Assembly (NCBI GenBank): GCA_002327235.1
Contig: DCUX01000046.1
Location: 4,032-68,031 of the forward strand
Origin: Firmicutes bacterium UBA2203
GTDB lineage: Bacteria > Bacillota > Desulfotomaculia > Desulfotomaculales > Nap2-2B
Reading direction: 5' to 3'
Length of the DNA: 64,000 nt
Part shown: positions 8,918 to 34,001 of the stretch, piece by piece
Layout of the letters: the number at the start of each line of letters is the position of its first letter
How positions within the stretch are numbered: position 1 is the stretch's first letter
The notes under the pieces: generated by a model
The model's input: the letters and a program-made list of their open reading frames with translations, nothing else
Told to the model about the DNA's origin: nothing
Database searches by the model: none
Position numbers and translations under genes: made by a program

Positions 8918-9090
8918 TAACGCTTAACAATAATTTTATTTCAATCTATAATTTCTTAAAATTTTACGCCTACAAGTGTTTCTTGTCAATCAAGATTTCA
9001 GGGATTTCAAGGATTATGTTTTTCTTTCAAGACAAAAAATAGTAGTGAACAAAACTAAATTTCCATGCTACAATTTTATTAAGAAATAAT

Positions 9091-9122
9091 AAAGGTGCGC
9101 TTGATTAAAAGCGCACCTTTTT
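9091..9122. terminator. Bidirectional intrinsic terminator hairpin downstream of the SASP gene
   Basis: Perfect stem AAAGGTGCGC / GCGCACCTTT with A/T runs on both sides. Confidence 0.7.
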
Positions 9123-9126
9123 GCCC

Positions 9127-9309
9127 TTATTGCTGTCCCTGCGTCATGTTTTTTTCGGCCCGGGCGATGGCCAGGCGGACCAGGTTACCGCAATTTCGAG
9201 AAGAAACGCTTCCCCATCCTTCCTTGCGCACCACATCATCCACACCGAGCTCTTTGGCTAATTCATACTTCAGCCTCTCGGACATTAAGCCGCGACGCCT
9301 TCTTCTCAT
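9127..9309 (-). CDS. Alpha/beta-type small acid-soluble spore protein (SASP)
   Basis: 60 aa. The K(Y)E(L)AKELGV...GWGSVSSRNCGNLV motif is diagnostic. RBS GGAGGAAGG upstream. Confidence 0.9.
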   Translation of the reverse strand: MRRRRRGLMSERLKYELAKELGVDDVVRKEGWGSVSSRNCGNLVRLAIARAEKNMTQGQQ

Positions 9310-9509
9310 TAGCCTTCCTCCTTTTTATTAACGCAGGAACGGTCCGGGCAAGGCAATATTCTTTTTTCGAACGCATTATTAGTATTCCTTTAAAAAAAAG
9401 AAAAATGTCTGTTAAATAAATTTAAGTTTGTTATTAATTTTTAAAAAAATTATTTTTAGGTTTTTTCAAAGGGGTGTCTAGAGCTTAACCAAACACCAAT
9501 AAGGTCTTA

Positions 9510-9977
9510 CTACATTTTTACGGTTACGTTTCTTTCTTTTAGATACTGTTTGGCTTGTAAAATTGAAATTTCTCGAAAGTGAAAAATTGAAGCCGCTAAA
9601 ACTGCTGAAGCTTTACCAATTACTACAGCTTGATAAAGATGTTCTAATTTTCCTGCTCCTCCGGAAGCAATTACAGGGATATTAACTGCTTGGGCAACTG
9701 CCCTAGTCATTTCTAAGTCATATCCATCTTTGGTACCGTCAGCATCTTTGCTGGTAAGCAGTATCTCCCCTGCCCCTAGTTCCTCTACTTTTCTTGCCCA
9801 ATCAACAACATCTATTCCCGTACTTTCGTTTCCACCTTTAATTACCACTTCTAAGTAAGGAATATTGTTCCCCGGCGGATTTTTCTTTCCATCAATAGCA
9901 ACAACAATTTTCTCTTTACCAAACTTCTTTGAAGATTCTCTGATTAACTCGGGGTTCTTTACAGCAGATGAGATCAT
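9510..9977 (-). pseudogene. hisF: hisF-like imidazole glycerol phosphate synthase cyclase, C-terminal ~155 aa only
   Basis: The translation matches the C-terminal 60% of HisF (IVVAID..., [26 protein letters not shown]). The N-terminal ~100 aa are missing and are replaced by IS-derived sequence. Confidence 0.8.
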
Positions 9978-10367
9978 CTTTTCCCGGATTTTCTATGGTG
10001 TAGCGGTAGACTCGCCGCCGAAATTCGTACAAGGTGCGTTCGGCCAGATAGAGTTCACCGAGGTTACGTAGACCAACCGCATACATAACCTGGTAGTTAA
10101 AGCGAAACTGTTCGAGAATGTCTTCGTCGGGGTAATCTTTCATGTGTTTAAGGAACTCTAGGGAAAGCAGAATATTCACGGGGAAGTTGGGACGTCCGTT
10201 ATCCAAGCTGTACAAGTAGGAAAAAGGAGTCTCATCGATTTTACAAAACACATGCTCATAGAAAAGGGGGCCCAGGTTCCCTGCAAACTAGCTTGTATTT
10301 TGGGATTCATCGTCGAGTAACTGTTAAATAGTTCTGTTTGAAGGTGGTCTTTGTTTTCCCGAAACAT
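9978..10367 (-). mobile_element. IS1182/IS5-type (DUF772) transposase N-terminal remnant, frameshifted and truncated
   Basis: Two overlapping ORFs (10367-10176, 10251-9916) read MFRENKDHLQTELF...YSTMNPK... and FCKIDETPFSYLYS..GRPNFPVNILLSLEFLKH. About 130 of the ~450 aa expected remain. RBS AGGAGG upstream. Confidence 0.7.
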
Positions 10368-10591
10368 TTGAATCCTCCTAGAGCTTATTTGTTAGTTTAT
10401 CAGCAGATATCTCTTAATTTCTATAATATACTTCGATATTTAACCACATTTCTCCTGCTTCACCATGAACTAATTTTGGGTATTCTATGGGGTTTTTGCA
10501 GGGGAATCATAATTTTATTTAATTTAACTACCAAATTGAAGGTGATTAGTTTGCGTCCCGGGACAATGAAGATTTTCGTGATCTGAGCATA

Positions 10592-11310
10592 ATGAATCTT
10601 GAAAACGCCAAAAAAAATAAAACAAAAATTGTTGGCCTGTATTGCGCGTTTGCGCCCCAGGAACTTGTTCTAGCCGCGGGGGCTATTCCGGTAGGCCTTT
10701 GCGGGACAAAAAACGAGCCTATCGCGGCTGCTGAAAAGGTATTACCCCGCAACCTTTGTCCGCTAATTAAATCAAGCTTCGGATTTGCCATTACGGATAC
10801 ATGCCCTTTTTTCCGGCTTGCTGATTTTATAATTGCGGAAACCACCTGTGACGGCAAGAAAAAGATGTTTGAATTTTTGCGCCGGTATAAACCGATGCAT
10901 ATAATGCAGCTGCCACAGAGTTCAGACGGAATCAGGGCATTCGATTGGTGGCTGGCTGAGCTCTCGGTTTTGAAAATTAAACTGGAGGAGAATCTGGGCG
11001 TTGGGATTAGCGAAAATTCACTCCGGCAGGCTATTAAACTTGCCAACAGGGAACGGCGGACCATGAAGCGTCTCCATGAAATAAACAAAATCGATCCGGC
11101 TCCTCTGTCCGGTCTTGATCTGATGACAGCCCTCTGGTCTAATAACTTTACTGAAGACAAGGAAGAGGGTATCGAACTGGTTAACGGTTTAATTGGAGAA
11201 GCTGACGAAATTGCCGGCAACGGGACTTCGCCGTTTCCGAAAGGCACGCCGCGCATTCTTTTAACTGGCTGCCCTGTGGGCCTCGGGTCTGAAAAAGTTG
11301 TCATGCTGAT
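10592..11310 (+). pseudogene. 2-hydroxyacyl-CoA dehydratase / double-cubane-cluster reductase family protein, C-terminally truncated
   Basis: IVGLYCAFAPQELVLAAGAIPVGLCG...CPLIKSSFG...ETTCDGKKK fits the HgdB/YjiM-type family. The reading frame runs directly into activase sequence near 11305-11320. Confidence 0.6.
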
Positions 11311-11936
11311 TGAAAGGGGATATCGGTTTTATTGTGGGAACAGGTTATGGAAGGATATCTGTTCCCTTCATTGATCAAGCTGTTACGGAGATTACCTGTC
11401 ATGCCAAAGGGGCTCACTTTTTAGTGAAAGAAATTGACATGGTTATCGATATAGGCGGGCAGGACAGCAAGGTGATCGCCGTCGACCGTTTCGGCAATGT
11501 CACTGACTTTGCGATGAACGACAGGTGCGCAGCCGGGACGGGTAAGTTCCTGGAGGTAATAGCTGCCGCCCTAAGTCTGGACGTCAGTGAACTGGCCATG
11601 CTGTCCAAGAACGCCGATCCAATCCAGACAAGTAATATGTGTACTGTATTTGTCGAGTCGGAAGTAATCAGCCTGCTGGTGGAGGGAGTGAAGAGAGAGA
11701 GAATAATAGCCGGTATCCATCAGTCTGTGGCGGCCAGGGTGGCTGCTATGGCTGAAAGATTAGGCAAAGGTACCCATATTATATTTACCGGCGGAGTGGA
11801 AAGAAATGAGGGTGTGCGGGAGTTCTTGGGTAAAGAACTCGGGAGAGATTTGCTTGTTGTGCCGGAGTCGCAGATTGCCGGCGCCCTGGGAGCGGCTCTT
11901 CTTGCCCAGGAAGAAGTTAAACTAAAATCGCTGTAA
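11310..11936 (+). pseudogene. Acyl-CoA dehydratase activase (BcrA/BadF/HgdC ATPase family) lacking the N-terminal ~60 aa
   Basis: TGYGR...CHAKGA...IDIGGQDSKVI...NDRCAAGTGKFLE...TVFVESEVIS...IAGIHQSVA aligns from about residue 60 of HgdC. The ATP-binding GIDxGST start is absent. Confidence 0.75.
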
Positions 11937-11951
11937 ATTGGGGGGATACGG

Positions 11952-12206
11952 ATGGCGAAAGTGCAGGTTGAGTTTATCAATACCTGCCCGTCGTGCGACG
12001 GGTATGCGCGCATGATTGAAAGTGTGGCCGGCAAATTTGGCGCTGAGGTTGCCGTAAAGATATATTATACCGGCAAAGATATGGACTACATTCGGAAATA
12101 CGGAATGGTGACAAAAGGAACGATGATTATTAACGGCAAAAAGAGAATCGACAATATTACCAGATCGATTATTGAAAAAACTATCGAAGAAGAGCTGGAG
12201 CGATAA
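11952..12206 (+). CDS. Thioredoxin-fold small protein (redox-active disulfide protein-like, CPSC motif)
   Basis: 84 aa with N-terminal CPSC. Typical partner of the downstream ArsP-type permease. Confidence 0.55.
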   Translation: MAKVQVEFINTCPSCDGYARMIESVAGKFGAEVAVKIYYTGKDMDYIRKYGMVTKGTMIINGKKRIDNITRSIIEKTIEEELER

Positions 12207-12209
12207 GAA

Positions 12210-13142
12210 TTGATTTTGGGATTTATTAAGAATGTGCTTATTAACGCCTTTGAAATTTTAAACGGGGCTTCCCTGTGGCTTGTAATCAGCTTTATTCTTG
12301 CGGGACTGCTGCATAATTTTTTAAACGCCGGAAGACTCATGAACATGCTTGGGAATACAAAGATCTCTTCACTAATCAAGGCAACGGTAGCAGGAATGCT
12401 GCTGCCTATTTGCAGCTGCGGGGTGATCCCGCTCGGTTTGGGCCTTTATTACTCCGGGGCTTTTCTTGGACCGACTCTGGCTTTCATGACAGCCACACCT
12501 ATAATAAATCCTGCCGCTGTTCTTCTGGCCTATGGTTTTTTAGGACCTCAGATTGCCACCGTGTATCTTGTCTGCGGTTTAGTGATTCCTCTAATTATCG
12601 GGATGGCAGGAAATAGATTTGCCGGTCCGGAATTAAAAGTTCAGGACATTGAAGATGCTGTTGAGACAGTCAAGCTGGAAAATTCGCAGCGGCCGGGCCT
12701 GGCGGAGAAGCTGTGGTCTGGTTTGCAATGGGGATTTCTCGATCTTGGACTGACAGTGAGCAGGTACGTCTGTTTTGGAATGCTTCTTGCGGGTTTGATA
12801 ATTACACTTGTGCCCGCTGCTTTTATCCAAAAGTATTTGGGAAACCCCGGTCTGCTGTCAATCTTTAGTATAGCTGTTCTCGGGGGAATAATGTATGTCT
12901 GCGCGGTAGGCCATATCCCTTTTATCGCGGCGCTTGTGGCCAGCGGCGCCGCTCCAGGGTTGGCAATAACGTTTTTAATGACCGGCGCTGCTACCAATTT
13001 TCCTGAATTGATCAGTATTTACAAGTTAATTGGGAAAAGGGCCGCAGTAATTTATTTCTCGGTTCTGGTCGGTTTCTCTTTTTTGGCTGGTTACCTTACA
13101 AATGCACAAACTCATTCCCGGCCCCGGTTTCCAATCAGTTAA
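12210..13142 (+). CDS. Permease, COG0701/ArsP-like family
   Basis: 310 aa, multi-TM, with the LLPICSCGVIPL motif. The C-terminus may be altered (see rejected note on 13145-13291). Confidence 0.7.
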   Translation: MILGFIKNVLINAFEILNGASLWLVISFILAGLLHNFLNAGRLMNMLGNTKISSLIKATVAGMLLPICSCGVIPLGLGLYYSGAFLGPTLAFMTATPIINPAAVLLAYGFLGPQIATVYLVCGLVIPLIIGMAGNRFAGPELKVQDIEDAVETVKLENSQRPGLAEKLWSGLQWGFLDLGLTVSRYVCFGMLLAGLIITLVPAAFIQKYLGNPGLLSIFSIAVLGGIMYVCAVGHIPFIAALVASGAAPGLAITFLMTGAATNFPELISIYKLIGKRAAVIYFSVLVGFSFLAGYLTNAQTHSRPRFPIS

Positions 13143-13318
13143 TTTCATTCAGGGATATCGACCGCAAGTCTCCGGTTGAGTTCGTAGTCCAAGGAATGAA
13201 AGGCGCCAAGGTCGGCTATGCCGTATACAGGGTGGAAGGTGCCTTGCTCGAGGATCTTTTTGGCCGGGGAATGAAAGATTGCTGCTAAAACTTTCTAAAA
13301 AAGGAGATAGCTATAAAA

Positions 13319-14572
13319 ATGAAAAAACAAGGATGGGCTGTTTTAATCTTTGTGTGTATTCTTGTTCTTCTGGCAGGATGCTCGAGCAAGAAAACAGAAC
13401 AGAAGGAAACGTCCGTACAGGACAAGGACAAAGACTATATTATCCAGCTTGGTTATTATAACTGCGACCACATGACTGCCGCATGCGTGGCCAAGGACGC
13501 AGGTATTTTCGAACAATTGGGATTAAAAGTGAATGTGACCGGTAACGGAAACGTCCCGGAAGCCATGGCCGCCGGCAGGATGGACGTGGGCTACATCGGG
13601 ACGGAAGGTCTGATGAGGGCATATCTAAAAGGCTCTCCCATTTTTGTGGCGGCGAACAACCACCTGGGCGGCTCTTTTTATCTTGTTGCCTCAAACAAAA
13701 TCAAGGACACCAGAGGCCTGGTAGGTAAAAAGGTGGCGCTGGGCTCGGATCCGGAAAAGACTAATTCATCCTGGATTCAGATCGCCAACAACGCCGGTAT
13801 ACCTGCGGCCGGGGCAAAATACGAGGTCTATGATATGGATTTGAAAAATAGATTTTTAAGCTTGAAATCCGGGAAGATTGATGGTTATCTCACTTGTGAC
13901 CCATGGGCTTCAATGGCTGAATACGATAAATGCGGCCATATTGTTCAGGCGTTGGGAAAACTGCCGGACGGGGACTGGGGTTCCTGTTGTGTATATTCAA
14001 TGAACAAGAATTTTGCCGAAAATCATCCCGAACTGGCCCAAAAAATGATCCTGGCCCATACAAAGGCGCTGGAGTACATCTATACTAATCCTGTCAGCGC
14101 GGCGAAGATCTTTTCGGCCAACTACTTCGTGCCTGAAGAAGTAGCAATGATGACCATTTACGAAAAGACTGCCGGTGAGGGAAGGACCCTGACGTGGAAA
14201 GTCGATCCTAAAAAATTCACTGACGAAATAAACTACGAATTGAGAGTCAAGACTTTCGACAAAGCTCCGAACGCCTACGAAAAAGGAGCGGTTGACGCTG
14301 TTGTGACGGACGCAATTGATGCGCTGTTTCTTAAAGGCGATAAAAAGGCGCTGTCCGTCCGGGATGAAGATGCGGTTACATACACATTGGTGGTCCGAAA
14401 AAGCTTTAAAAAAGATCCCCACTATAAGGAGTTTACCAGATTATATCAAGAGGCGGTTCAGGAACTGAACCGTCCCGAAATAATCCAGAAGGAAATCAAC
14501 AGGTACAAAAAGAACCCGGCTTCAGGGGAAAAGGCGGATGAATGGATCAGGTGGGGGATAAAATTTATTTAA
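13319..14572 (+). CDS. ABC transporter substrate-binding lipoprotein (NMT1/THI5, sulfonate/nitrate/taurine-type)
   Basis: 417 aa. Lipobox LLAGCSS. NMT1-like core plus about 90 extra C-terminal residues. Confidence 0.7.
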   Translation: MKKQGWAVLIFVCILVLLAGCSSKKTEQKETSVQDKDKDYIIQLGYYNCDHMTAACVAKDAGIFEQLGLKVNVTGNGNVPEAMAAGRMDVGYIGTEGLMRAYLKGSPIFVAANNHLGGSFYLVASNKIKDTRGLVGKKVALGSDPEKTNSSWIQIANNAGIPAAGAKYEVYDMDLKNRFLSLKSGKIDGYLTCDPWASMAEYDKCGHIVQALGKLPDGDWGSCCVYSMNKNFAENHPELAQKMILAHTKALEYIYTNPVSAAKIFSANYFVPEEVAMMTIYEKTAGEGRTLTWKVDPKKFTDEINYELRVKTFDKAPNAYEKGAVDAVVTDAIDALFLKGDKKALSVRDEDAVTYTLVVRKSFKKDPHYKEFTRLYQEAVQELNRPEIIQKEINRYKKNPASGEKADEWIRWGIKFI

Positions 14573-15342
14573 AAGAAAAAACAAGCTGGCGAATATTGGA
14601 TAAGGCGCTGTGCAGGCTGCTTATGATAGCTGCGCTTTGTTTTGTCTGGCAACTGGCCGCCAACCACTACCACAGCGAGCTTTTGCTGCCCACCCCCTGG
14701 AAAACGGCATTAGCTTTAGCTTCAGCAGTTCATGATCCGGAAGTGATCAAAAATCTGATTATAACATTAAAAAGAGTCTTGACGGGCCTTGGATTTGCTC
14801 TTGCCGCCGGGTTGCCCATAGGATTTTTGATGGGCTATTCTCAAATTGCGATGCAACTTTTTGATCCCTTAATCGGTTCAGTCAGGCAGGTCCCGATAAT
14901 GGCCTGGGTACCTTTGACAATTGTCTGGTTTGGCCTGGGCGACGGTCCGACGGTATTCTTAATTGCTTTTGCGGGTGTTTTTCCCATTATTTTGAATACA
15001 ATTGCCGGAGTGCGGAATATTTCCAAAAACTATTACAATGCGGCTCACAGTATGGGCGCCGGTCCGTGGAGCATTTTTGCCAATGTTATTGTGCCGTGTT
15101 CTCTGCCGGATATCCTGACCGGGGGCAGAATTGCCGTCGGTTTAGGGTGGATGTCCGTAATATGAGCGGAATTTATTGCGACGAGTGCCGGTTTCGGCTA
15201 CTCCATGGTGGAGGCCCAGACAAGAATGCAAACAGATCTTTTGATAGCGCTGATGATTATGGCGGCTCTCGTGGGGTATGGCATCGACAGGATAATCCTG
15301 GCTTTAGAGAAAGTAATAACTAAATGGAGGTTTGTCCATTAG
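14542..15342 (+). pseudogene. ABC transporter permease (SsuC/TauC-type) interrupted by an in-frame TGA
   Basis: The frame reads ...GLGWMSVI-TGA(15163-15165)-AEFIATSAGFGYSMVEAQ...KWRFVH. Both parts are in the same frame and together form a complete permease. Confidence 0.8.
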
Positions 15343-16176
15343 TGGAGCTTAAGGTCGAGAAGATCAGCAAAGTGTTTCATAGCAACGGAAATATAAACAC
15401 AGTCCTGAAAGAAGTCAGTTTTACCATACGGGAAGGTCAGTTTGTCACTCTTTTGGGCCCGTCCGGGTGCGGGAAGACAACCCTTTTAACCATCATAGCA
15501 GGTTTCCAGAAAGCTTCCGGCGGAAGGATTCTTCTAAATGACCAGGTTGTTCAAAAGCCCGGGTCTGACAGGGGTTTTGTCTTTCAGGATTACGCTCTGT
15601 TTCCCTGGATGACGGTCAGGGAAAATATACTGTTTCCTATGAAACAAAAAGGAGTTCCCAAAAAAGAGCGTGAAGAACGTATGGAGGAACTTCTGGCTAT
15701 GGCGCGGCTTGAAGGCGTAGAACGGCTATATCCCAGTCAGCTTTCCGGCGGGATGAAGCAGCGGGCGGCTTTTATCAGGGCTTTGGCCGGCCGGCCGGCC
15801 GGAAGTGCTGTTGATGGATGAACCGCTTGGAGCGGTTGATTTTCAAATGAGAAAGGCGCTTCAGGAAGAACTGGAAACCTTGTGGAGCAAGAATAAGAAA
15901 ACCGTCTTGATGGTAACTCATGATGTTGATGAGGCTGTCTACCTCAGTGACCGCGTAATTGTTCTTTCCGCCTGGGAGGGAAGAATCTTAGAGGATCTGG
16001 CTATTACAATGGACAGGCCCCGGGACAGACAGTTGAAAGAGTATCTTTTCAATAAAGGATTTTTAGAGGATTTACTTAAAAAAGTTAAAGGAGGCCAGAA
16101 TAATGAAAGTCGCTTACGTTTTCAGCTCGACGAACTCTCAAAAAATATTGGACAAAATGATTATTCCCCAGCTTGA
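15342..16176 (+). pseudogene. ABC transporter ATP-binding protein with frameshift in a (GGCC)n run
   Basis: Walker A GPSGCGKTT, signature LSGGMKQR, then ...RALAGRP / frameshift / LLMDEPLGAVD. (GGCC)x4 lies at 15785-15800. One repeat unit fewer restores RALAGRPEVLLMDEP. GTG start overlaps the permease stop (TAGTG). Confidence 0.85.
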
Positions 16177-16261
16177 GAATCAAAGGCACGGAGCGGATGT
16201 ATTGGGTATGTTTTTCTTTATGGATAATACCTTTGCTCCAAGCTCATGTTGTTTTAAATAG
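16103..16261 (+). pseudogene. DsrE/DsrF-like sulfur-relay protein, N-terminal ~45 aa only
   Basis: The 52-codon ORF MKVAYVFSSTNSQKILDKMIIPQLENQRHGADVLGMFFFMDNTF... follows RBS AAAGGAGG. The family is normally ~115 aa. Confidence 0.45.
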
Positions 16262-16292
16262 ACAAACCGAAAAAATAAAGGGAGGAAAGCAG

Positions 16293-16930
16293 ATGAATAA
16301 AAACTTGGATTGCCGGGGGTTAGCGTGTCCCCAGCCTGTAATAAACACTAAAAAGCGCTGGAAGGAATAGAACAGGGGACCGTTCTAACCGTTATCGTTG
16401 ATAATCAGACTGCGAATGAAAATGTTGCCGCTTTTGCCGAAAATTCAGGTTGCAGTGTGGACGTAAAGGAATCTGGCGGTGATTTCATATTGGAGATAAC
16501 TGCAAAAGATAAATCCGGGGATTTGCAGCGCAGTGCTGAATGTAGTCAAAAAGTGGAAAGCGTTTATCAAAAAGACCAAGCTTACCTGATTAGTACAGGT
16601 CAGGTTTATCTGATCACAACCAACTCGTTTGGACAGGGTTCCCCGGATTTGGGCGAGGTGCTGATGAAGAGTTTCTTTACTGCTTTAATTGAACAGCCGT
16701 GCCCGGAATCTTTGATTTTTATAAACTCCGGAGTTTACCTGACAACCGAAGGCTCGCCGGTAATCGAACAATTGAATTCCCTGGTCAAAAAGGGCGCGCA
16801 GGTTCTATCCTGCGGCACATGCCTGAATTATTACAAGCTTACGGAAAAACTGCTTGTCGGAAAGGTCAGCAACATGTTTGAAATACTTGAACAGCTTACC
16901 AAATCCGGTAAAGTTATTAATATAGCCTGA
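16293..16930 (+). pseudogene. yedF: YedF-type sulfurtransferase-like selenium metabolism protein (TusA-like N-domain + DsrE-like C-domain), frameshifted
   Basis: N-terminal MNKNLDCRGLACPQPVINTKK (CPxP TusA motif). A -1 frameshift in the A5 run at 16350-16354 restores ...KKALEGIEQGTVLTVIVDNQ... continuing into ORF 16457-16930. Confidence 0.7.
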
Positions 16931-17080
16931 CAGGCGATCTCAAAGTACCGCCAATTACAGCTGCGATCAAACGGAACTAAAGCCGCGCTAACTAAAGTAA
17001 ATTTATTTAAGGATTGCCGCCTGTGCTGTTTTTATATAAAATATAGATTAAATAAGGAAAGAATCTTTGGAGGTAATCAC

Positions 17081-17545
17081 ATGGCGGGAAAAATGTTGGC
17101 TAAAGATATAATGACCAAAGAGGTCATTACAGTTAATGAAGATGATACAATAGAAAAAGTTGCCCAACTGATGCTGAAATACCATGTCAGTGGCATGCCC
17201 GTAGTCGACAGTGAAGGAAAACTAACCGGCGTCATCAGTGAGGGCGACTTGGTAATTCAGGATAAGGAAATAAAAGCGCCGGTAATGACTGTTTTTCTCG
17301 GAGGCGTTATTTATTTGGAAAACCCCGGCCGTTTCAACAAAGAATTAAAACGCATTATTGCTCTCAAGGTTAGCGAGTTAATGTCCAAGAAGGTGTATTC
17401 TGTCGGGCCGGAAGACCCGATTGAAAAAGTAATCAAAATTATTTCGGAAAAAGAAGTCAATCGTGTCCCGGTAGTGGATGAAAACAAAAGACTACTGGGA
17501 ATAATCAGCCGCCAGGATATTATCAAAGCCACACATTCCCGGTGA
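17081..17545 (+). CDS. CBS domain pair protein
   Basis: 154 aa with two CBS repeats (IMTKEVITV...MPVVD; LMSKKVYSV...VPVVD). Confidence 0.85.
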   Translation: MAGKMLAKDIMTKEVITVNEDDTIEKVAQLMLKYHVSGMPVVDSEGKLTGVISEGDLVIQDKEIKAPVMTVFLGGVIYLENPGRFNKELKRIIALKVSELMSKKVYSVGPEDPIEKVIKIISEKEVNRVPVVDENKRLLGIISRQDIIKATHSR

Positions 17546-17658
17546 GTTTGTTGCTTATAAAAACAGCGGTATTCTTTAAAAACAGCAGCCCTGCAAATTT
17601 TTTGCGGGGTTTTGACATTTTATACTTTTTTTTAAAAAAGGAAGTTGACCCAGGAGTG

Positions 17659-18235
17659 ATGAATATTCTAAGTAAAAAAGAAGTGGATGTAAACAGGATG
17701 AACAGCGGGGACATTTTGGGGTACAGGTGCCCTGTATTGTAATACTATTTCCTCTAAAGAAGCCAATAACTGCATAGAGTGCGGCCACTGGCTTTTTGAC
17801 CTCAATTTTCCCGGTACGCCAATTTACCGGGAGGGATATTTGGATGAGATTGAAGGAGAGAAAAAACCGGCATCCAAATATCTTGTTGCGCTTGTTGCCG
17901 TTATTCTTTGTGTTGTTATTTTCGCTTCGTTAATCAATATTCCCGATAATAACGTGTCAGCTTTCCTGCCAATTTCTGAAGTGCGGCAGTCTGTAGAGCC
18001 GCTTTCCTTTAACGAAAAGAGCGTAAGTAAGGCTTTTACCTGGAGTTACCAGGGAGTTGCGTATAGCTGGAATATAGGTATTCCCGCAGATTTGCTCGAA
18101 TACAGCAAAAATATAAAAGATATCGTTCAGAAGTATTATGAAAGCGACGGCGCTGAACAAAGAGCCATTTTTATAAGGTCCGACGCCAACCTGAGAAGTT
18201 TTAATCAGTTCTTTAAGGACAACTTCAAACGGTGA
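17659..18235 (+). pseudogene. Zinc-ribbon + single-TM protein, frameshifted near 17734-17738
   Basis: Frame A reads ...GYRCPVL*. Frame B continues YCNTISSKEANNCIECGHWLF...KKPASKYLVALVAVILCVVIF. Removing one T gives CPVC...CIEC. The N-terminus is uncertain (ATG 17659 or 17698). Confidence 0.45.
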
Positions 18236-18248
18236 TTTATCCCCCTGG

Positions 18249-18692
18249 GTGACAGAAGAAAAAAACTATCGATTTGCCGGTTGCATGGGGGAATCGCTGT
18301 CAGCCCTGGCTGCCGAATTAGATTACTTTCACAGGGCTGAATTTGTACTGAGTTTTATCGGAGGCGCTATCCCTTACAAAGTTGCGGATGTCCAGTTGCC
18401 GGTTCAAACACTTGCTGAAAATGGTGATTGTGACTGCAAGTCTATTCTTTTGGCTGCCATTCTGAAAAACATGGGGTATAGAGTTGCTCTGGTAGAGTTT
18501 CCGGATCACTTTGCTGTAGGAATAGCTTTTGAAGATGATCAGGTTCCGTCTAACCGAGACCTCTTATATTACGATTATGAAGGAACAAAAGGAACAAAAT
18601 ATTACTTTGCCGAGACGACAACACCGGGATGGCGAATCGGTGACGCCAGCAGCAAAAGCAGGAAAAACGCATTTTTGTTTCCCGTTAAGTAA
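18249..18692 (+). CDS. Hypothetical protein with transglutaminase-like Cys/His core (GDCDCKSILLAAILKNMGY...PDHFAVG)
   Basis: 147-aa ORF. Its frame is open from 18195 and overlaps the end of the previous ORF, so the two may be one gene split by a frameshift. Confidence 0.4.
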   Translation: MTEEKNYRFAGCMGESLSALAAELDYFHRAEFVLSFIGGAIPYKVADVQLPVQTLAENGDCDCKSILLAAILKNMGYRVALVEFPDHFAVGIAFEDDQVPSNRDLLYYDYEGTKGTKYYFAETTTPGWRIGDASSKSRKNAFLFPVK

Positions 18693-18915
18693 CAACCTGC
18701 AAATACACTTTACCTTTAAATGCTCATATTTATTTGCGCCATAATTCTAAGCCAAGTTCGCCAATTTACCATATACATAATATGGTTGATGTGACATAAT
18801 GTGCCGTCAATTAAAAGAGAAGAATCGCGGGATATTTTTTTTAATAATATTTAAATTTAGATAAAAAAAGTTATAATAATTATAGTCAATAATATTTTCT
18901 TTATTTTGGTGAAAA

Positions 18916-19926
18916 ATGAATTTAAAACAGCTGGAAGTATTTTTATGGGTTGCCGAGTTAAAAGGTTTTAACAAAGCTGCCAAAAGGTTATACATGAGCC
19001 AGCCTGCGGTAAGTTTTCAAATCCAGTCATTAGAAGAATTACTTGGTGTAAAACTCTTCTGGCGAAATGAAAAAAATGTTATTCTTACTGAAGCCGGGAA
19101 ACTGTTATTTGAGCAGGCGAAGCAGGTAGTTGCCCATTATTATAAGATTAAATCAGCCATCAATGATCTGAAAGAATTAAAAACAGGATCTTTTACAATT
19201 GGAGCGAGTACCATTCCTGGTGAATACGTACTGCCGAAATTAATCGGGAACTTTCACCGGCAGTTTCCGGGAATTCAAATAAATATGCGGATAGCGGGAA
19301 GCGCACAGGTTGAAACGTGGCTTTTAAACCGCGATATAGACATAGGTTTTTGCGGCACACCGATTTCAGGCAAGGAAATCGAATGTTTGCCTTTTCTAAC
19401 TGACCACTTGGTTTTGATTGCCCCGCCGGATCATTTCCGGAAAGCCGGCGAGGAAGTAAAGATTAACAATCTAATCAGGGAAAAGTTTATTTTAAGGGAA
19501 AGCGGCTCCGGAACACGGAAAACTTTTGAAGCAAGCCTTGCCAGGAGTGGTATTTCTAAAGAACAATTAAACGTTGTTATGGAAATGGGTAGTACCCGGG
19601 CTATAATTACCGCCGTGGAAGCCGGTTTGGGGGTAAGCGTTGTTTCGTTTTTAGCTGCCCGGGAACCTTTATTGCTTGGATTAATCAAGGAAATTCCTGT
19701 TCATGACCTTGATCTGAACAGAAAGTTATATGTTATTCGCGATCAAATCTGGATGAATAATTTTGCTGCTGAAGCATTCCATAATTTTATTTCCGCAGGG
19801 TCCCCGGATAACCAAGGACCCTTTGCAGATAAACTTTTTTACTCCTGTTTTGTGATGTCAATTTTGACTATTTTTATGTCCTGTGCTGGTTTTCCATTAG
19901 CATCGGTTTTAACGGCGGCTATTTGA
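18916..19926 (+). CDS. LysR family transcriptional regulator
   Basis: N-terminal wHTH LKQLEVFLWVAELKGFNKAAKRLYMSQPAVSFQIQSLE. About 35 aa longer than usual, running 88 nt into the convergent PPIase gene. Confidence 0.85.
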   Translation: MNLKQLEVFLWVAELKGFNKAAKRLYMSQPAVSFQIQSLEELLGVKLFWRNEKNVILTEAGKLLFEQAKQVVAHYYKIKSAINDLKELKTGSFTIGASTIPGEYVLPKLIGNFHRQFPGIQINMRIAGSAQVETWLLNRDIDIGFCGTPISGKEIECLPFLTDHLVLIAPPDHFRKAGEEVKINNLIREKFILRESGSGTRKTFEASLARSGISKEQLNVVMEMGSTRAIITAVEAGLGVSVVSFLAAREPLLLGLIKEIPVHDLDLNRKLYVIRDQIWMNNFAAEAFHNFISAGSPDNQGPFADKLFYSCFVMSILTIFMSCAGFPLASVLTAAI

Positions 19927-20600
19927 TCAACGACATCAATTCCCTCAAAAACCTGGCCAAAAACAGTATGATGGTTGTCAAGCCATGGCGTTCCGCCGTT
20001 ATTTATGTAACTGTCAATGAGTTCCTGATTAAAACCGTTCTGGCGCATCCATTGCTGGAGATTATCTTCAATCGTATTTTTTTGTACGATAAAGAATTGG
20101 CTTCCATTTGTATTGGGCCCGCTGTTGGCCATGGAAAGCGCTCCCCTGTAGTTATGCAGGTTGTCGCTGAATTCATCTTCAAAAGGTTTTTTCCAGATGC
20201 TCTGGCCTCCTGTGCCGTTTCCCAGCGGGTCACCGCCCTGGATCATAAAATTGTTAATTATTCTGTGGAAGGTTAAGCCGTTATAATAACCTGATGCTGC
20301 AAGCTTAGTGAAATTTTCTACGGCTTTGGGCGTCTCTTTGGGGAAAAACTTAACTTTTATGACTCCCATAGTAGTTGTAATAATTGCAATAATATCGCCT
20401 TTTTCGGGAGGGGCTAACTGATCCTGGTCTGGTTTCATTGGGTTATTTGCACCTGCCTCACTTGATTTTGATTCCTGTTTTATAGGTTGGGTAAATTCGG
20501 GTTTTGATGTTTTGCCGCATCCGGGTAAGATTATTAAAAGTAAAATAAGTGATAAGATAAATCTTTTTTTCATTTTTATAGCCATCCCTTTCTGAAGCAT
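19839..20600 (-). CDS. Cyclophilin-type peptidyl-prolyl cis-trans isomerase, lipoprotein
   Basis: 253 aa. Lipobox LPGCGK. FHRIINNFMIQGGDP and HTVFGQV motifs. Confidence 0.9.
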   Translation of the reverse strand: MLQKGMAIKMKKRFILSLILLLIILPGCGKTSKPEFTQPIKQESKSSEAGANNPMKPDQDQLAPPEKGDIIAIITTTMGVIKVKFFPKETPKAVENFTKLAASGYYNGLTFHRIINNFMIQGGDPLGNGTGGQSIWKKPFEDEFSDNLHNYRGALSMANSGPNTNGSQFFIVQKNTIEDNLQQWMRQNGFNQELIDSYINNGGTPWLDNHHTVFGQVFEGIDVVDQIAAVKTDANGKPAQDIKIVKIDITKQE

Positions 20601-21013
20601 AAAATTTCATGAAAGAATTTCTTTCAGATTTGCCCTCCGATAGTACACTCCTTTTTACATGTTGGTATCCTTTTTTTCAAAATATATTGTAACCCAAAAT
20701 CTGTTTTCTTGCATATTTAATTCTAACGGTTTATGGTATTTTCTAGTTTAGACATAATCTTAATCGTAAAAGGGCGCCTGCGTATAAGCTGGTTAACCTT
20801 TTTACCTTTCCTTGTGAGGAGGCGCAAGATGAATTTCAGGTTTATAGTTGGTTTATAGTTTTTAAGGCTTCCGGGCAAGGACCAGGGATGTAATTGATTT
20901 GATTTTATAATTTGTCAGGCGGAACAGACTGCATTAAGAGGAATTTTCTACTTTACCCCAAGTATAATATATCAACGCCTTGAATGTTTATTTAAGAAAA
21001 CAAGCCTGGCTAA

Positions 21014-22156
21014 TTGAAAAAAGGGGGTCGGAAGTTGGGCAGAGGGAAAATAAAACATTTATTTCCGGGAGGAAATACTTCGGTCGGCTTTTTTTCATAT
21101 TACTCAAACATAATCGATCTAACAAGGGCAACCCGTGTTTTTGTAATAAAAGGCGGGCCGGGTGTGGGGAAATCTACCTTCATGCGTAGGATTGGAGATG
21201 AGATGACGGAAAGGGGCTATGATATTGAACACCACCATTGTTCCTCGGACAATGGCTCGCTTGACGGTGTTGTTATTCCTGCGTTTGGGATTGCCCTGAT
21301 TGACGGAACCAGCCCTCATGTAGTTGATCCCCGTTATCCCGGCGCCGTTGATGAGATAATTAACCTTGGGGAATATTGGGACGAGGAAAAGCTCCGGGGA
21401 AGCAGGGAACAGATTTTGGAGGACAGCAATCTTTTGGGACAGCTTTTTCCTGCGGCATACTCTCAGCTTGCGGAGGCTAAAGCTAAAATAGCCCGGGATG
21501 ACGCTGAAGGCTGTGTTGCTGCTTGTATGGATTTCTTTGGTGTCAATAAAATTACGCTTGATTTAATTGGTGAAATAACGGGAGGTTTACGGGGCAGCGG
21601 GAAGAGTTCTCTGAAAAGGCATCTGTTCTGTTCCGCAATTACTCCCGACGGCGTAAAGCACTTTATAGAAAGTCTCCTGGATGGAATTGAGAAAATATAC
21701 CTGATTGAAGGGCGTCCTGGCAGCGGCCGCTCCTGCCTTGTGGAAAAGATAGCCTGGGAAGCGCAGCTTAGGGGACTGGACACAGAAGTTTACCACTGCG
21801 CTTTTGAGCCTCAGAAAGTGATCTTGTGATTATCCCGGAGGCGAAGTCCGCTGTACTCAAGAATGCGGAGGAATTCGGTTTTAAGCCCGAAACAGTGAGT
21901 GGTATAAATACAAATGTAATAAACCTTAACAGCTGCCTTCATCAAACAAGGTTGGAAAGCGGCAATGACCGGCTTTTCAGCGCCGGACAGCGTTTTACAG
22001 CGGCGTTCAACCGGGCGGTAGGTTATCTAAGTGAGGCCAAACAGGTCCATGACCATTTGGAGAGCTTCTATGTACAGGCGATGGATTTTGAACAGCCATA
22101 GAGAAAAAGAGAATTAACATTTTGCAGCGTATCCTCGGTTATGCGCTGGAAAAGTA
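21014..22156 (+). pseudogene. Two-P-loop ATPase of unknown function, split by two frameshifts
   Basis: GGPGVGKST and GRPGSGRS Walker A motifs. ORFs 21014-21829 and 21826-22101 plus a third-frame tail to 22156 (EKKRINILQRILGYALEK*). Adding one G at about 21818 restores ...QKVDLVIIPE... Confidence 0.6.
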
Positions 22157-22238
22157 AGTCTTATGATCGGGTTTTACGAATCAGGGTTTTCCTATTTTCC
22201 TAACCCGGCATAGCCGGAACCAAAAAGGTTTTTAACAT

Positions 22239-22277
22239 CCCATGCTGAAATATATCAGAAAATAATCTCAGCATGGG
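22239..22277. repeat. Perfect 10-bp inverted repeat (CCCATGCTGA ... TCAGCATGGG) 10 nt upstream of the next ORF
   Basis: Read directly from the sequence. Function unknown (operator, terminator or element end). Confidence 0.5.
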
Positions 22278-22286
22278 GGCAAACAA

Positions 22287-23310
22287 ATGTTGCTTACAGA
22301 ACGTTACAAAGAACAGATAACTGGAGTCATCTCCTGCTATGACAGACTGGTTATCCAGGATACTCTCCCGGGATGGTGTTTCGCCGGCGGCATGACATCG
22401 TTTCTCAATGCCAACAAGATCAGAATCTTTGACTACCCGCAGTTTGCCAATGCCTTAAGAGAAGAGATTCGCTCACATGCAGAGGCGATAGCTAGGGAAA
22501 ATGATCTTGAGATGGAGCATCATGCAGGTAGAATACGCAACCGATATTGCCTTCAAGAAACAGGCCGATCTCGGACTGCTTTATGAAACGCTGGTACGTA
22601 CCGCCGTCCACTTTCGTAAAACCGGAAAACATCGCCTCCTTCCTGGGCAGAAACTTCACTGGAACTACCAGGGCGAAATGGGCAACAACTTCAACACACG
22701 CATTCTCGGTACGAGAATCAAGCACCAGATGGGTGCAGCCTCAATTAAGATGTACGACAAGTTTGGGATCGTCTTGCGGATTGAAACAACCACCAACGAT
22801 GTCTCCCAGTTCCGACATAGGCGTGAAGTCCAGCGCCATGACGGGAGCAGGGATAGCAAGGTTGCCCCAATGAAAAAGAGCATTTATAGTCTCTACATCC
22901 TGGCCCAGTTGCTCAAAGACTCTAACCGTCGCTACCTTGAATTTATCTCCACATTTGACGATCCCAGCGACGGAATAAAGAAGCTTTTTAAAATCTCTGA
23001 TCCTGTCAAAGATGATGACAGAAGCTACAAAGGTTTCAATTTCTTCAGCCAGGCTGACCAGAAGCTTTTTGAAGTCCTGGCGCGGGGTGAATTTAACATC
23101 AATGGTTTTCAAAACAAGGTGATCCGTAAATTCATCCCTGACTCGAGCCCTTCATCCGTCACCAGGATCTTGAAGCGTCTTTCGCTCCACGGCCTCATTA
23201 AAAAAGTTGCGAGGTCCCGTAAATACTATCTCACCAAATTGGGGAAGGCCGTCATCACTACTGGATTAAAAACAAGGGCGCTTTTTGTCATCCCCAGTTT
23301 GGTTGTTTAG
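22287..23310 (+). pseudogene. Uncharacterised protein with C-terminal winged-helix-like domain, frameshifted (possibly mobile-element-borne)
   Basis: ORFs 22287-22586 and 22501-23310 overlap in different frames. C-terminus VTRILKRLSLHGLIKKVARSRKYYLTKLGK is MarR/wHTH-like. No transposase family recognised. Confidence 0.35.
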
Positions 23311-23459
23311 AGCTCACTGTTGCGAAATTTTCTTTCCACTTTGCGAAGATGTTCGGATTTAAGGGCCTAAAGAAGTATTCAAAAATGCTTGCTGATATGG
23401 CTGGGGTTGAAGATCTCACCGAGCTTGAAGATGTTTAGCCTAAAAAAATGTTTTTCAAT

Positions 23460-23520
23460 GCTCTTTGGCTAATTCGTACTTCAGCCTCTCGGACATTAAG
23501 CCGCGACGCATTCTTCCCAT
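23460..23520 (-). pseudogene. 5' fragment (about 20 codons) of an alpha/beta-type SASP gene
   Basis: 58/61 nt identical to 9249-9309. Encodes MGRMRRGLMSERLKYELAKE then H-stop. No SD upstream. Confidence 0.8.
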
Positions 23521-23549
23521 AGGCTTTTTCAAATAGGAATGAGAGCTGG

Positions 23550-25334
23550 CTATAATTTTGGGGGTAAATTTTTATCTGGGTTAACTATAATTGTGTGGTG
23601 GTTAGTATAAGTTACAAAACCAGGCCTTGTCCCAGGGGGTTTTTTAACGTGTTTCCGGTCGGTATAATCTACGGGAACATTGTGAGACTGCCGGGCCCGG
23701 CTGTAAAAAGCCGCTAATATTGCCGCTTCCTGAAGGGTGGCAGGGGGTACGGGCTGTCCGTTGGTTTTGATGATCACGTGGGAGCCGGGAATTTCCTTGG
23801 TGTGCAACCATACGTCATTTTCTTGAGCCAGGCGCATGGTCAAATAATCATTTTGCCGGTTATTTTTTCCCACGAGAATGGTTAAGTTATCGGAAGAAAT
23901 AAATTTTAAAGGGAGGCTAGTTTTTTGTTTGGGTTCGGGTTTATCTTTACTTTTTTGGCCGGTGGTTGCTTTAGCAAGGTAACCGGTATTCATAAGCTCC
24001 TGGCTTATTTCGGCCAGGTCGTCTAAGGTACCTGTCTGCTGCAAAGCGGTTTCCACGCTTAAAAGATAAAACCACTCTTGGCGCGCTTTTTCTAGCAAAG
24101 ACTGGACAGCCAGGCGGGCTTTTTTGGCTTTTTGATACTTCTTAAAAAAAGCTTTCGCGTTTTCTACCGGGGAAAACTGCGGGTCCAGGGAAATTAAAAC
24201 GCGGGATGAAGGGTCATGAAAATCGGCTAAACTTACTTCGGTTAGTCCCTTTTCTAAACAATAGGCGTTAGCCAGTAATAATTCACCGTATAACTTAAAT
24301 TTTTCCGCTTTGGCTGCTTCGGTTAGGTTTTCTTCCCAAGTGGAAATTTTTTTGACCTGGTAATCTACTTCTTTTTGTACTAAAGAAATCAAGCGCTGTT
24401 TTTTCTGGTTAAAGCTGGAACGTTCCTCCCGAAAGGTAAAAAATTGGTCAACAAGGGCATTCATGGTAGCCTTATGAGCGGCTAGTTTTTTCAAGTGGGT
24501 TAAGGGAAAAGCAGCAAATTCCACCGGCTCACCGGCTTCATTAACCATAAGCGCAGGCTGAAAGTCTCCCTGTCTGACTTTTGAGCAAAGAAGCTTTAGT
24601 TTTTGCCCCAAGACATTTACTTCGTATTCCCCGCACTCGTTTAAGGTTAGGTCTGCCGACAGCCCGGCATGGTATATTATTTCCCGGCTCATTAAGGTAC
24701 TCAATCCCTCAACGCGCCGCTGTAAAATTTGCTCTAGTTTGGCCGCTAAAGGTTGTTGCCAGATGTCCTCCTGAAAATTTGCTTCATTTAAAGTACTAAG
24801 GGCAAGCTTATCCTGTTTTGGCGGGTGAAGGTAAGGACGGCCCGGCAGGACTTCCCGGTAGCGGCTGATATTAAAAGAGTACCGTTTTATACCGTCAATA
24901 ATTGTTTGGGTGGCCGCGTCAACCAAAATAATGTTGCTATGTTTTCCCATTATTTCACAAACCAGGTTTTTTTGGGTTAACTGGTTTATCTCATTTCTTA
25001 CTTCAATTTGAAAAATTAATATTCTATCTAAACCTTCCTGAACCAGGTTAACAATACGCCCTCCCTCTAAATGTTTGCGTAAAACCATACAAAAAAGAGG
25101 CGGTGAAGCCGGATTCCCCTTGGCGTGTCCGGTCAGGTGAATTCTTGCCTCGCTGGCGTGGGCCGAAATTAAAAGCCGGTACCGTTTTCCCGGCTGGCGC
25201 AAGATAACGTTTAGCTCCAAAGGAGCAGGCTGGTATATCCGGTCAATTCGGCTGCCCAATAGGGGCGTTATATTTAACGTCCCGTCAATTAACTCTTTTT
25301 TTATGGCGGCTAAAACAAGCCCGTCAAAAGGCAT
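23550..25334 (-). CDS. rqcH: RqcH / NFACT-family ribosome quality control protein (fibronectin-binding protein A-like, YloA)
   Basis: 594 aa. N-terminal MPFDG...L, central coiled coil, C-terminal DUF814-like ...WLHTKEIPGSHVII.... Confidence 0.85.
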   Translation of the reverse strand: MPFDGLVLAAIKKELIDGTLNITPLLGSRIDRIYQPAPLELNVILRQPGKRYRLLISAHASEARIHLTGHAKGNPASPPLFCMVLRKHLEGGRIVNLVQEGLDRILIFQIEVRNEINQLTQKNLVCEIMGKHSNIILVDAATQTIIDGIKRYSFNISRYREVLPGRPYLHPPKQDKLALSTLNEANFQEDIWQQPLAAKLEQILQRRVEGLSTLMSREIIYHAGLSADLTLNECGEYEVNVLGQKLKLLCSKVRQGDFQPALMVNEAGEPVEFAAFPLTHLKKLAAHKATMNALVDQFFTFREERSSFNQKKQRLISLVQKEVDYQVKKISTWEENLTEAAKAEKFKLYGELLLANAYCLEKGLTEVSLADFHDPSSRVLISLDPQFSPVENAKAFFKKYQKAKKARLAVQSLLEKARQEWFYLLSVETALQQTGTLDDLAEISQELMNTGYLAKATTGQKSKDKPEPKQKTSLPLKFISSDNLTILVGKNNRQNDYLTMRLAQENDVWLHTKEIPGSHVIIKTNGQPVPPATLQEAAILAAFYSRARQSHNVPVDYTDRKHVKKPPGTRPGFVTYTNHHTIIVNPDKNLPPKL

Positions 25335-25495
25335 GGTCTTTTACTCCCTAATCAATTTAACCATCAGTCATTGGTAGCTCGGGGTGTTTTTCCTATGATT
25401 ACTCCTTTATGGACGAACAGCAGGTCTCCTAGGTAAAAGGCATAGCCATATTCATCACTAACGGTCAATTTTAGTTGCCTGGCTACTGGTTTAAG

Positions 25496-25523
25496 GTAGG
25501 GGCGTTAAATTTAACGCCCCTAC
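25496..25523. repeat. Family-A 28-bp palindrome GTAGGGGCGTTAAATTTAACGCCCCTAC
   Basis: Perfect palindrome. The same 28-mer or near-identical copies occur at 48488, 50487, 52080, 60438 and 62992. Confidence 0.9.
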
Positions 25524-25645
25524 TGATAGCATTATACCAATTTTTTAGCCTCTTCGCCAACTGGATTTATGGTTGGGGTGTTATAATTTTCCTTATTTTT
25601 GCGTATTTATAGTGGTAAATCCTCTATAAAGGGAGGGAAGGTATT

Positions 25646-28417: not shown

Positions 28418-28464
28418 CCGCATATAAACATAAAATCTGAAGTAGGAGTAAAAATTATAAAAAA

Positions 28465-29325: not shown

Positions 29326-29374
29326 AAGTTTAAAATAGTTGTTGCCATTACTTTAAACAAGGGGGTTTTTATTT

Positions 29375-30553: not shown

Positions 30554-30635
30554 GCCGGAAATTAAGAGGAAAATAAAAAGGTGGTTACGGAGTTATTTAA
30601 AGAATAGCTCCGTAAACTGGGACAGGAGGATAGAT

Positions 30636-31829: not shown

Positions 31830-31855
31830 TTATACAGGGGAAAGATGGTGAAAAT

Positions 31856-32740: not shown

Positions 32741-32759
32741 TATCAAGAGGAGGGGTTTC

Positions 32760-33050
32760 GTGGAAATCAAATTAGTAAATATCGGTTTTGGTAATATTGT
32801 TTCCGCCAATAGGATTGTGGCTATCGTTAGTCCGGAATCGGCCCCAATTAAAAGAGTTATTAATGAGGCCCGTGACCGGGGTATGTTAGTTGACGCTACT
32901 TATGGACGGCGGACGCGCGCGGTTATAGTTACGGACAGTGACCACATAATTTTATCTGCGGTGCAGCCGGAAACAGTAGCTCACCGTTTAGACAGGGAAA
33001 CAGCATCAGCCCAAACCACGGGGGGAGAGGAAGAGGAAGCTACCAGCTAA
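32760..33050 (+). CDS. remA: Extracellular matrix/biofilm regulator RemA (YlzA) homolog
   Basis: GTG 32760 after [39 protein letters not shown]...[19 protein letters not shown] is diagnostic. Acidic C-terminal extension. Confidence 0.85.
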
Positions 33051-33108
33051 ATTGTAAATAGGGTTACCTATCACAGAAAGGGAGAATAAAGGAGTCTAAA
33101 AGAAACTT

Positions 33109-33744: not shown

Positions 33745-33783
33745 TTTGAGAGAATAAAGCACGGCGACTTAGGAGGTCAAGTT

Positions 33784-33987: not shown

Positions 33988-34001
33988 GATAAGGATAAAA
34001 T

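Follow-up and report, generated by a model that had tools for sequence, protein, structure and literature searches.

Sequence comparisons suggest insertion sequence-mediated relocation and decay of a selenium-associated gene block between rqcH and a spore protein gene

Results

The segment between rqcH and ssp

We analyzed a 14-kb segment that lies between rqcH and a small acid-soluble spore protein (SASP) gene, ssp, in Firmicutes bacterium UBA2203 (GCA_002327235.1). The window, by which we mean the whole stretch of DNA analyzed, is 64,000 nt long and covers positions 4,032 to 68,031 of the forward strand of contig DCUX01000046.1. The segment is filled with disrupted genes and bracketed by a direct repeat, and we think it probable that it is the scar of a multi-step rearrangement and not an integrated element. 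Related loci at the insertion site were fetched with RqcH as the query; related loci and contigs are given L-numbers below, and the homologous proteins compared are given P-numbers.

On the left, ssp (9127..9309, minus strand) is intact. It encodes an alpha/beta-type SASP of 60 aa that matches PF00269 weakly and shares 96–97% amino acid identity with its orthologues in L008 and L009. The first 61 bp of the gene, or 20 codons (copy S, 9249-9309, minus strand), are repeated in the same orientation at 23460-23520 (copy S′, minus strand) with 58 of 61 positions identical (BLAST E 3e-20), and no other internal repeat in the window is as strong. The repeat and its dead right copy, first pointed out in an earlier note made from the sequence alone, were readily reproduced. 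S′ reads MGRMRRGLMSERLKYELAKEH-stop and lacks a ribosome-binding site (Shine-Dalgarno); it lies 8 nt past the ancestral rqcH stop. The intact gene is still joined to its native upstream region U (9310..9457, minus strand), which holds the ribosome-binding site and promoter region. Beyond U, the last native bases before the insert are the left copy, T′ (9458..9470), of a 13- to 14-bp AGGYTTTTTCAAA motif. The right copy, T (23521..23533), is a native spacer motif that overlaps the ancestral rqcH stop (TGA 23529-23531, minus strand). S′ is joined directly to the 13-bp T motif, and the native U is absent from this dead copy. Where SASP codons 21–60 and the terminator would follow, there is instead an 89-bp filler (23371..23459) that the window has in common with a related contig, L180. 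An exact lookup of the SASP protein returned one short contig, which ends inside the truncated hisF described next.

At the left edge of the insert is a hisF pseudogene, hisF′ (9471..9977, minus strand), made up of the C-terminal 155 codons (9510-9977; positions 103-227 of 228 in Pfam His_biosynth) and 39 bp of its own 3′ flank. It is fused, as the earlier note had described, to an IS1182-type insertion sequence (IS) remnant (9978..10508, minus strand) in which the transposase N-terminus (to 10367) is frameshifted and the 5′ end of the element is kept. This stub retains only the family-typical N-terminal DUF772 (E 3e-7), the DDE part being deleted. The following 11.7 kb (10509..22197, plus strand, delimited by comparison with L185-L190) run from a double-cubane reductase gene through a P-loop ATPase gene. 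The reductase is joined to an activase gene (10592..11936, plus strand) through a 547-bp deletion at 11315 relative to L185, leaving positions 11-251 of 372 in NF040772 and 53-248 of 248 in TIGR00241. The earlier note had recognized this deletion fusion, but its “dehydratase” is the double-cubane reductase of NF040772.

Next in the block come eight genes or gene fragments of the SAO operon, treated in the next section, and then yedF (16293..16930, plus strand), a pseudogene with a -1 frameshift in an A run at 16350. An intact gene for a CBS-pair protein (17081..17545, plus strand) has the same length as in L185 and L183. The gene for a zinc-ribbon, transglutaminase-like membrane protein, 379 aa when intact (17542..18692, plus strand), carries an extra T at 17737 and another at 18199. 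Two intact genes follow, encoding a selenium-metabolism-associated LysR regulator (18916..19926, plus strand; NF040786, 321.6 bits) and a cyclophilin-type peptidyl-prolyl isomerase (PPIase; 19839..20600, minus strand). The block closes with a PRK06851-type P-loop ATPase pseudogene (21014..22157, plus strand) that has lost an A at 21820 and gained AC at 22092. Between the block and the 89-bp filler lies a degenerate copy of an unclassified 1.73-kb element, here called ISx (22199..23370, plus strand), which is frameshifted and has an internal deletion of ~470 nt. The frameshifted winged helix-turn-helix (wHTH) “gene” of the earlier note, at 22287-23310, is this dead copy, and its lesions include, besides the frameshift, the internal deletion (~470-480 nt). 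The LysR protein is 336 aa long against 298 model positions, and its gene and the convergent PPIase gene overlap, sharing 88 nt; the long form and the overlap are also found in L185 and L183, while the L181 orthologue has 302 aa.

A wrecked SAO operon and a conserved selenocysteine codon

The central part of the block is a selenocysteine-assisted organometallic (SAO) locus of the type described by Haft (2022, bioRxiv 10.1101/2022.07.06.499078). Its first gene, saoT (11952..12206, plus strand), encodes an intact thioredoxin-like protein (NF040730, 134.6 bits against a cut-off of 65, positions 1-82 of 83). The open reading frame (ORF) at 12210..13310 (plus strand) is saoE without its C-terminus (NF040736 positions 3-296 of 352) joined to the tail of saoC by a 492-bp deletion at 13103 relative to L183; the tail ends in KDCC-stop, which is the SaoC CC-COOH motif. 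Similarly, a 643-bp deletion at 14271 relative to L183 has made a single ORF (13319..14572, plus strand) from saoX and saoB, with positions 1-284 of 330 from SaoX and 160-258 of 262 from SaoB. These two deletion fusions had escaped the earlier note. After saoP (14542..15342, plus strand), saoA (15324..16176, plus strand) is a pseudogene with four extra bases, GGCC, in a GGCC repeat run at 15785-15802, in agreement with the frameshift previously seen in an ABC ATPase gene. The DsrE stub of the earlier note proved to be saoD (16103..16261, plus strand), cut to positions 1-45 of 110 in NF040732 by a deletion of ~287 bp (L183 6866/7154 against window 16234/16253). The family assignments are supported by NCBIfam scores above cut-off for SaoE (471 bits; cut-off 325), SaoX (432; 300) and SaoP (414; 295), and SaoA, once repaired, reaches 411 bits on NF040729 (cut-off 360); the fragments of SaoB and SaoD fall short of theirs. 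Relative to L183 the operon is incomplete, through three deletions and one +4 frameshift.

The in-frame TGA of the ABC permease gene, saoP, had been counted as one of nine disruptions, a view that our comparisons do not support. Read through, SaoP matches NF040733 (“ABC_perm_U”) at positions 7-250 of 251 across the TGA. The TGA is codon 208, where the full-length homologues P0241 and P0249 have Cys (GWMSVICAEFIATS), and the database entries for P0242, P0248 and P0256 stop exactly at this position. A precedent comes from C. difficile, whose SaoP was corrected from 209 to 268 aa with selenocysteine (Sec) at residue 210 (Haft 2022, bioRxiv 10.1101/2022.07.06.499078). Because the model match spans the TGA, homologues have Cys there, other entries end there and the C. 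difficile protein sets a precedent, the TGA at 15163-15165 is predicted to encode the conserved selenocysteine of SaoP and is not a lesion. Folding for a selenocysteine insertion sequence (SECIS) predicted a hairpin downstream of the UGA, with a z-score of only -0.53, which is not significant. No tRNA genes were found in the window, and thus no tRNA-Sec; no sel genes were recognized in the parts of the window examined, and there were no Rfam hits inside the segment. With saoP, the frames still open in the segment are saoT and those for the CBS-pair protein, LysR and PPIase.

The lesions recur in independent assemblies

Metagenome assemblies from ENA MEGAHIT, JGI and Logan were aligned to the window. 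About 11 lesions recur, and these independent assemblies are 99.8–100% identical to the window across them. All 19 contigs that carry the exact LysR protein are of the decayed type, and the same split ORFs appear in the 10 listed. Lesions are absent from the 12 kb to the right, where all nine genes at 23550-35231 are full length relative to their orthologues. Because the other assemblies match across the lesions, and because the contigs with the exact LysR are all decayed, we conclude that the lesions are real mutations. This bears out the earlier suggestion that their clustering reflects decay and not random sequencing error, and the frameshifts it had reported in yedF, the zinc-ribbon gene, the P-loop ATPase gene (two) and the wHTH gene are all present.

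The 14-kb segment is missing from the closest species

The two closest genomes, Firmicutes bacterium UBA4795 (L008) and Peptococcaceae bacterium SCADC1_2_3 (L009), have ~87% RqcH identity and are collinear with the window over 12 kb. In both, ssp directly follows rqcH at a distance of ~165 bp and the ~14 kb are absent, which is the arrangement that the earlier note had proposed looking for in relatives. The counterparts of window positions 9071-9470 and 23520-35316 lie next to each other in both; identity over 9071-9470 is 92.8% with L009 and 88.3% with L008. These alignments show the 14-kb segment to be an insertion when compared with the closest species. The empty sites cease to match at 9470 and 23520, not at the 61-bp repeat, whose left copy sits 150 bp inside conserved DNA. 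With the boundaries placed there, the intact SASP gene still has its native upstream region of ~150 bp. Of the AGGYTTTTTCAAA motif L009 has one copy and the window two, which coincide exactly with the homology boundaries.

The possibility that the rqcH-ssp spacer is an insertion hotspot was considered and set aside; the wider relatives L010 and L018-L026 hold housekeeping genes there (pyrE and others), not mobile DNA. An RqcH scan of metagenome contigs for population variants found nothing nearer than 52% identity. Synteny with L008 and L009 is also broken right after the SASP terminator (below window position 9071), where the window continues with genes for DUF1003 and PFOR, L008 with a phosphoesterase gene and nadA, and L009 with a 338-aa ORF and ABC-transporter-like ORFs, the latter assigned by eye. 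The 0.4-kb ssp unit is thus a conserved island between two variable regions. Compared with L009, rqcH (NFACT family; 23550..25334, minus strand) is intact and ends seven codons early through a CAG-to-TAG change (23529-23552), with the ancestral TGA at 23529-23531 still in frame.

A sister contig preserves an older, smaller insertion

A search with HisF retrieved L180, a contig 96% identical to the window. Read in gene orientation, L180 begins with the rqcH 3′ end, T, S′ and the same 89 bp, with no ISx. It continues with D′, a copy of the DNA past the SASP terminator that is 83% identical to window 9039-8925, and then with an Mrr_cat gene, an intact hisF, 42 bp in common with the window and 67 bp more. 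Next comes a second copy of the rqcH 3′ end, made up of the last 121 bp and T (135 bp) and ~6% diverged. U follows the second T, and the contig stops before ssp. Including its flank, the window's hisF′ is 95.4% identical in nucleotide sequence to the intact hisF of L180.

The two flanks of the Mrr-hisF module in L180 are therefore parts of one contiguous stretch: both sides have the rqcH 3′ end and T, the rqcH side also carries S′ and D′, and the ssp side carries U. In L180 the duplicated DNA reaches to the rqcH 3′ end on one hand and past the SASP gene on the other, a pattern that points to a decayed duplication of ~670 bp, and not a short core site, as the source of the 61-bp repeat. This indicates that the 61-bp and 13-bp repeats of the window are probably worn residues of one and the same larger duplication. 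For the cause of that founding duplication, single-crossover (Campbell-type) integration of a circular DNA with this homology seems most likely; tandem duplication with a junctional insertion would fit equally well, and the two are not separable from the sequence alone.

The CAG-to-TAG stop of rqcH is common to L180 and to the duplicated rqcH fragment within it. The origin of the 89-bp filler as a remnant of the SASP 3′ half was examined and found no support from alignment; the filler matches L180 only. Stand-alone hisF genes of 96–97% nucleotide identity occur in at least three gene contexts (L178/L179 versus L180 and window 9510-9977), and homology across these contexts ends at or just past the stop codon.

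The block has intact native counterparts in related strains

Intact relatives of the block were found by a LysR search. Outside the SAO part, window positions 10509-11998 and 16281-22197 are 96–97% identical to a block in L185-L190, whose LysR is 97% identical in amino acid sequence. There, genes for Aminotran_5, the double-cubane reductase (388 aa), activase (259), YedF (212), the CBS-pair protein, the 379-aa Zn-ribbon protein, LysR, PPIase and the ATPase (371) are all intact, and the block lies in another chromosomal context, followed by cell-envelope genes. In L183/L184, where LysR is 89% identical at the amino acid level, the same block contains an intact saoT-E-C-X-B-P-A-D between activase and yedF. 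A further observation from L185 (7430-7545) is that the whole SAO operon has gone by one clean deletion, leaving a saoT stub of ~47 bp.

The divergence of the block (~4%) equals that of the window flanks from L180. On the basis of this equality, the block at 10509-22197 is best read as native to the clade and relocated, not foreign. The earlier note had taken the segment to be acquired, which the match to an intact native block argues against. It had also recommended compositional profiles; GC content was 43.9% versus 43.2%, leaving the segment without a compositional anomaly.

IS remnants bound the block

Each end of the block abuts an IS remnant. The IS1182 remnant meets native DNA at ~10505-10509, and homology to L185 begins at 10509; one side of the remnant adjoins the native reductase upstream region and the other is fused by deletion to hisF. 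At the far end, the DNA to the left of ISx is the native-block site, which is empty in L185 and reads GTTTTCCTAATTG, and the DNA to the right is the rqcH-ssp site, which is empty in L180 and reads GGACCTAAAAAGAAG. Both empty sites have CCTAA at the insertion point. One element with flanks from two loci is, as we interpret it, the signature of recombination between two ISx copies.

ISx encodes a single protein of ~505 aa. Its homologues number more than 8000, lie for the most part on contigs of 1.6-2.5 kb and span Bacillota, Nitrospirota, Calditrichota and Caldatribacteriota. An identical 502-aa version occurs on 17 contigs, and the nine listed show several distinct flank pairs. Across the listed copies the element has common ends, CCTAACCCGG...GAGCCTAA, with CCTAA at both ends of every copy and no terminal inverted repeats. 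The protein has no match in Pfam, NCBIfam, PHROG or PDB sequences, and no transposase, recombinase or nuclease domain was detected in it. A confident AlphaFold model (pLDDT 80) compared with the PDB by Foldseek matches in the C-terminal wHTH only, and PGAP names the homologues MarR-family regulators. It is conceivable, if somewhat short of probable, that ISx is an uncharacterized IS family inserting at CCTAA, possibly by an undescribed transposition mechanism, and that it drove the relocation of the selenium/SAO block here.

Copies of ISx were seen at window 22199-23370, at L004 12088-13602 and in L089-L097, and short subterminal hairpins were seen by eye only. The 89-bp filler holds a second TTTAGCCTAA (23434-23443) that resembles the right terminus of ISx. 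In sample ERZ27315071 the ISx copy keeps 466 nt that are deleted in the window, and a divergent intact ISx and an IS256 also lie beside S′. IS flux at the site is continuing.

Other features of the window

A perfect 28-bp palindrome, GTAGGGGCGTTAAATTTAACGCCCCTAC, recurs between genes at 25496-25524, 48485-48514, 50488-50516, 52077-52107, 60440-60466 and 62990-63020 and has a REP-like or terminator-like look. Two more families of short (40-70 bp) dispersed repeats, both occurring in both orientations, lie in the right half of the window. The first is at 35316-35359, 36317-36357, 40777-40825 and 57818-57857, and the second at 48530-48599, 56126-56184, 59613-59674 and 61457-61526. Two RNA motifs score above the Rfam gathering threshold, namely a cobalamin riboswitch at 2028-2243, upstream of a radical-SAM gene, and a pan motif at 50954-51051.

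Discussion

Together these comparisons suggest that an 11.7-kb block was moved by insertion sequences into an older insertion site and then decayed. We propose the following order of events. The starting point would have been ssp next to rqcH, ~165 bp away, as the closest species still have it. In an ancestor common with the 96%-identical sister strain, a 2.2-kb Mrr-hisF module would then have been inserted. The structure in L180 suggests that it was flanked by a direct target duplication of ~670 bp comprising the last 121 bp of rqcH, the spacer, ssp and the promoter region of the next gene. The redundant, rqcH-proximal copy of ssp would have decayed, losing its upstream region of ~149 bp and everything after codon 20, with the 61-bp right repeat as its residue. 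From the hybrid junctions, we hypothesize that copies of ISx and an IS1182-type element at this site then recombined with copies flanking the native block. This would have brought in, in this order, the double-cubane reductase, activase, SAO operon, yedF, CBS, Zn-ribbon protein, LysR, PPIase and ATPase genes, replacing Mrr and the 5′ half of hisF. The block then decayed by four gene-fusing or gene-truncating deletions of 0.3-0.65 kb and six frameshifts of 1-4 nt at short repeats, alongside the truncated IS copies and, in the window lineage, a 188-bp deletion that took the second rqcH fragment and left only T′. On this account the scar records how a known gene system was moved by insertion sequences and then fell apart, a real and well-resolved case of genome decay, though of an ordinary kind.

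Several observations weigh against this reconstruction. L180 and L185 are separate metagenome contigs of short to medium length, and that they represent one sister strain is inferred only from their equal divergence. It accounts neither for the 89-bp filler nor for an extra 8 bp (TTTTCCTA) at the left junction of ISx, and reciprocal IS junctions were not seen. Finally, a duplicate copy or homologous import from a close relative competes with relocation as the origin of the block.

The last of these points leads to the strongest alternative, in which the block is a redundant second copy, either an intragenomic duplicate or an import from a close relative, that decays while an intact copy persists elsewhere. 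The joint decay of many unrelated genes is what this would predict, and an intact version with 97% LysR identity does occur in the same family of metagenomes. That version was found in other samples than the decayed one, however, and its divergence of ~4%, equal to the divergence of the flanks from L180, is as expected for an orthologue in another strain. An intact twin in the same strain, sought with the exact LysR, was not found, and the 19 contigs with that protein were uniformly decayed. We regard redundancy as unlikely.

Much less probable is that one 14-kb insertion event left the 13- to 14-bp motif at 9458-9470 and 23521-23533 as its target-site duplication or att core. Its single occurrence in L009 and its position exactly at both homology boundaries would suit such an event. 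This candidate was dropped after L180 showed a longer duplicated stretch: the left copy there is preceded by 121 bp of duplicated rqcH, which makes the motif in the window a residue after the 188-bp deletion, and the insert has at least two layers of different age.

Very improbable, too, is a site-specific integrative element in the 5′ end of the SASP gene, with the 61-bp repeats as attL and attR and the element supplying a replacement 5′ end, as the earlier note had proposed. Att-flanked islands that restore their target gene do resemble this locus in that a direct gene-end repeat of 58/61 identity brackets DNA missing from relatives, here the sister species. The resemblance ends there. As the earlier note had remarked, no integrase is visible: in the scanned ORFs of 9472-23459 (Pfam/NCBIfam) tyrosine and serine recombinases were lacking, and nothing but the IS1182 stub and the ISx gene came up. 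It is the intact gene that keeps the native upstream DNA and promoter side and the dead copy that lacks it, the reverse of what the model predicts. In addition, the homology boundaries do not fall at the repeat, the duplication in L180 also covers the rqcH 3′ end and the DNA downstream of ssp, and the cargo is native DNA.

Least credible of all is that one low-quality assembly, through errors of sequencing or assembly, gave rise to the disruptions. Several frameshifts do lie in homopolymers or short repeats, but the lesions recur across assemblies and in every exact-LysR contig, are absent from the adjacent 12 kb and include four deletions of 0.3-0.65 kb. Of the earlier note, then, the repeat, the decay and its clustering stand as observations, the permease TGA as a lesion excepted; real decay and insertion stand as interpretation, while the att-like role of the repeat and the acquired origin do not.

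The reconstruction that we favor, relocation by insertion sequences followed by decay, can be set beside known systems. As in Campbell-type integration, the Mrr-hisF module has on either side a copy of one contiguous stretch of chromosome, and one of these copies has since decayed; unlike in such cases, no plasmid or circular form is known, and the copies in the window are reduced to 61 bp and 13 bp. As in IS-mediated relocation of gene blocks, IS remnants lie at both limits of the block, one of these elements has its flanks from two loci, and the moved DNA is where small frameshifts and mid-size deletions cluster. It differs in that the two bounding elements come from different families, reciprocal junctions were not observed and the receiving site already held an older, duplication-flanked insertion. 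The SAO locus of Haft (2022) is matched in its families and in the order saoT-E-C-X-B-P-A-D beside a double-cubane protein and activase, in the SaoP selenocysteine at the gating position and in the nearby selenium-associated LysR and YedF. In contrast to that locus, the operon here is wrecked, with saoE/C and saoX/B fused, saoD truncated and saoA frameshifted, and saoL is found neither here nor in the intact relative L183.

The locus offers a series of stages, from an empty site through a small insert to a 14-kb wreck and on to further IS polymorphism, in which a functional gene block would have been moved by IS recombination and then dismantled stage by stage. It illustrates that wear can reduce a much larger duplication to a short att-like repeat of a gene end, and that an in-frame TGA codon in anaerobic Bacillota must not be taken for a lesion. 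The unclassified, CCTAA-associated element ISx is a lead worth separate study. The SAO operon appears to have been lost twice independently, by clean deletion in the sister strain and by piecemeal decay in the window strain, and would therefore be dispensable in these hydrocarbon-degrading communities.

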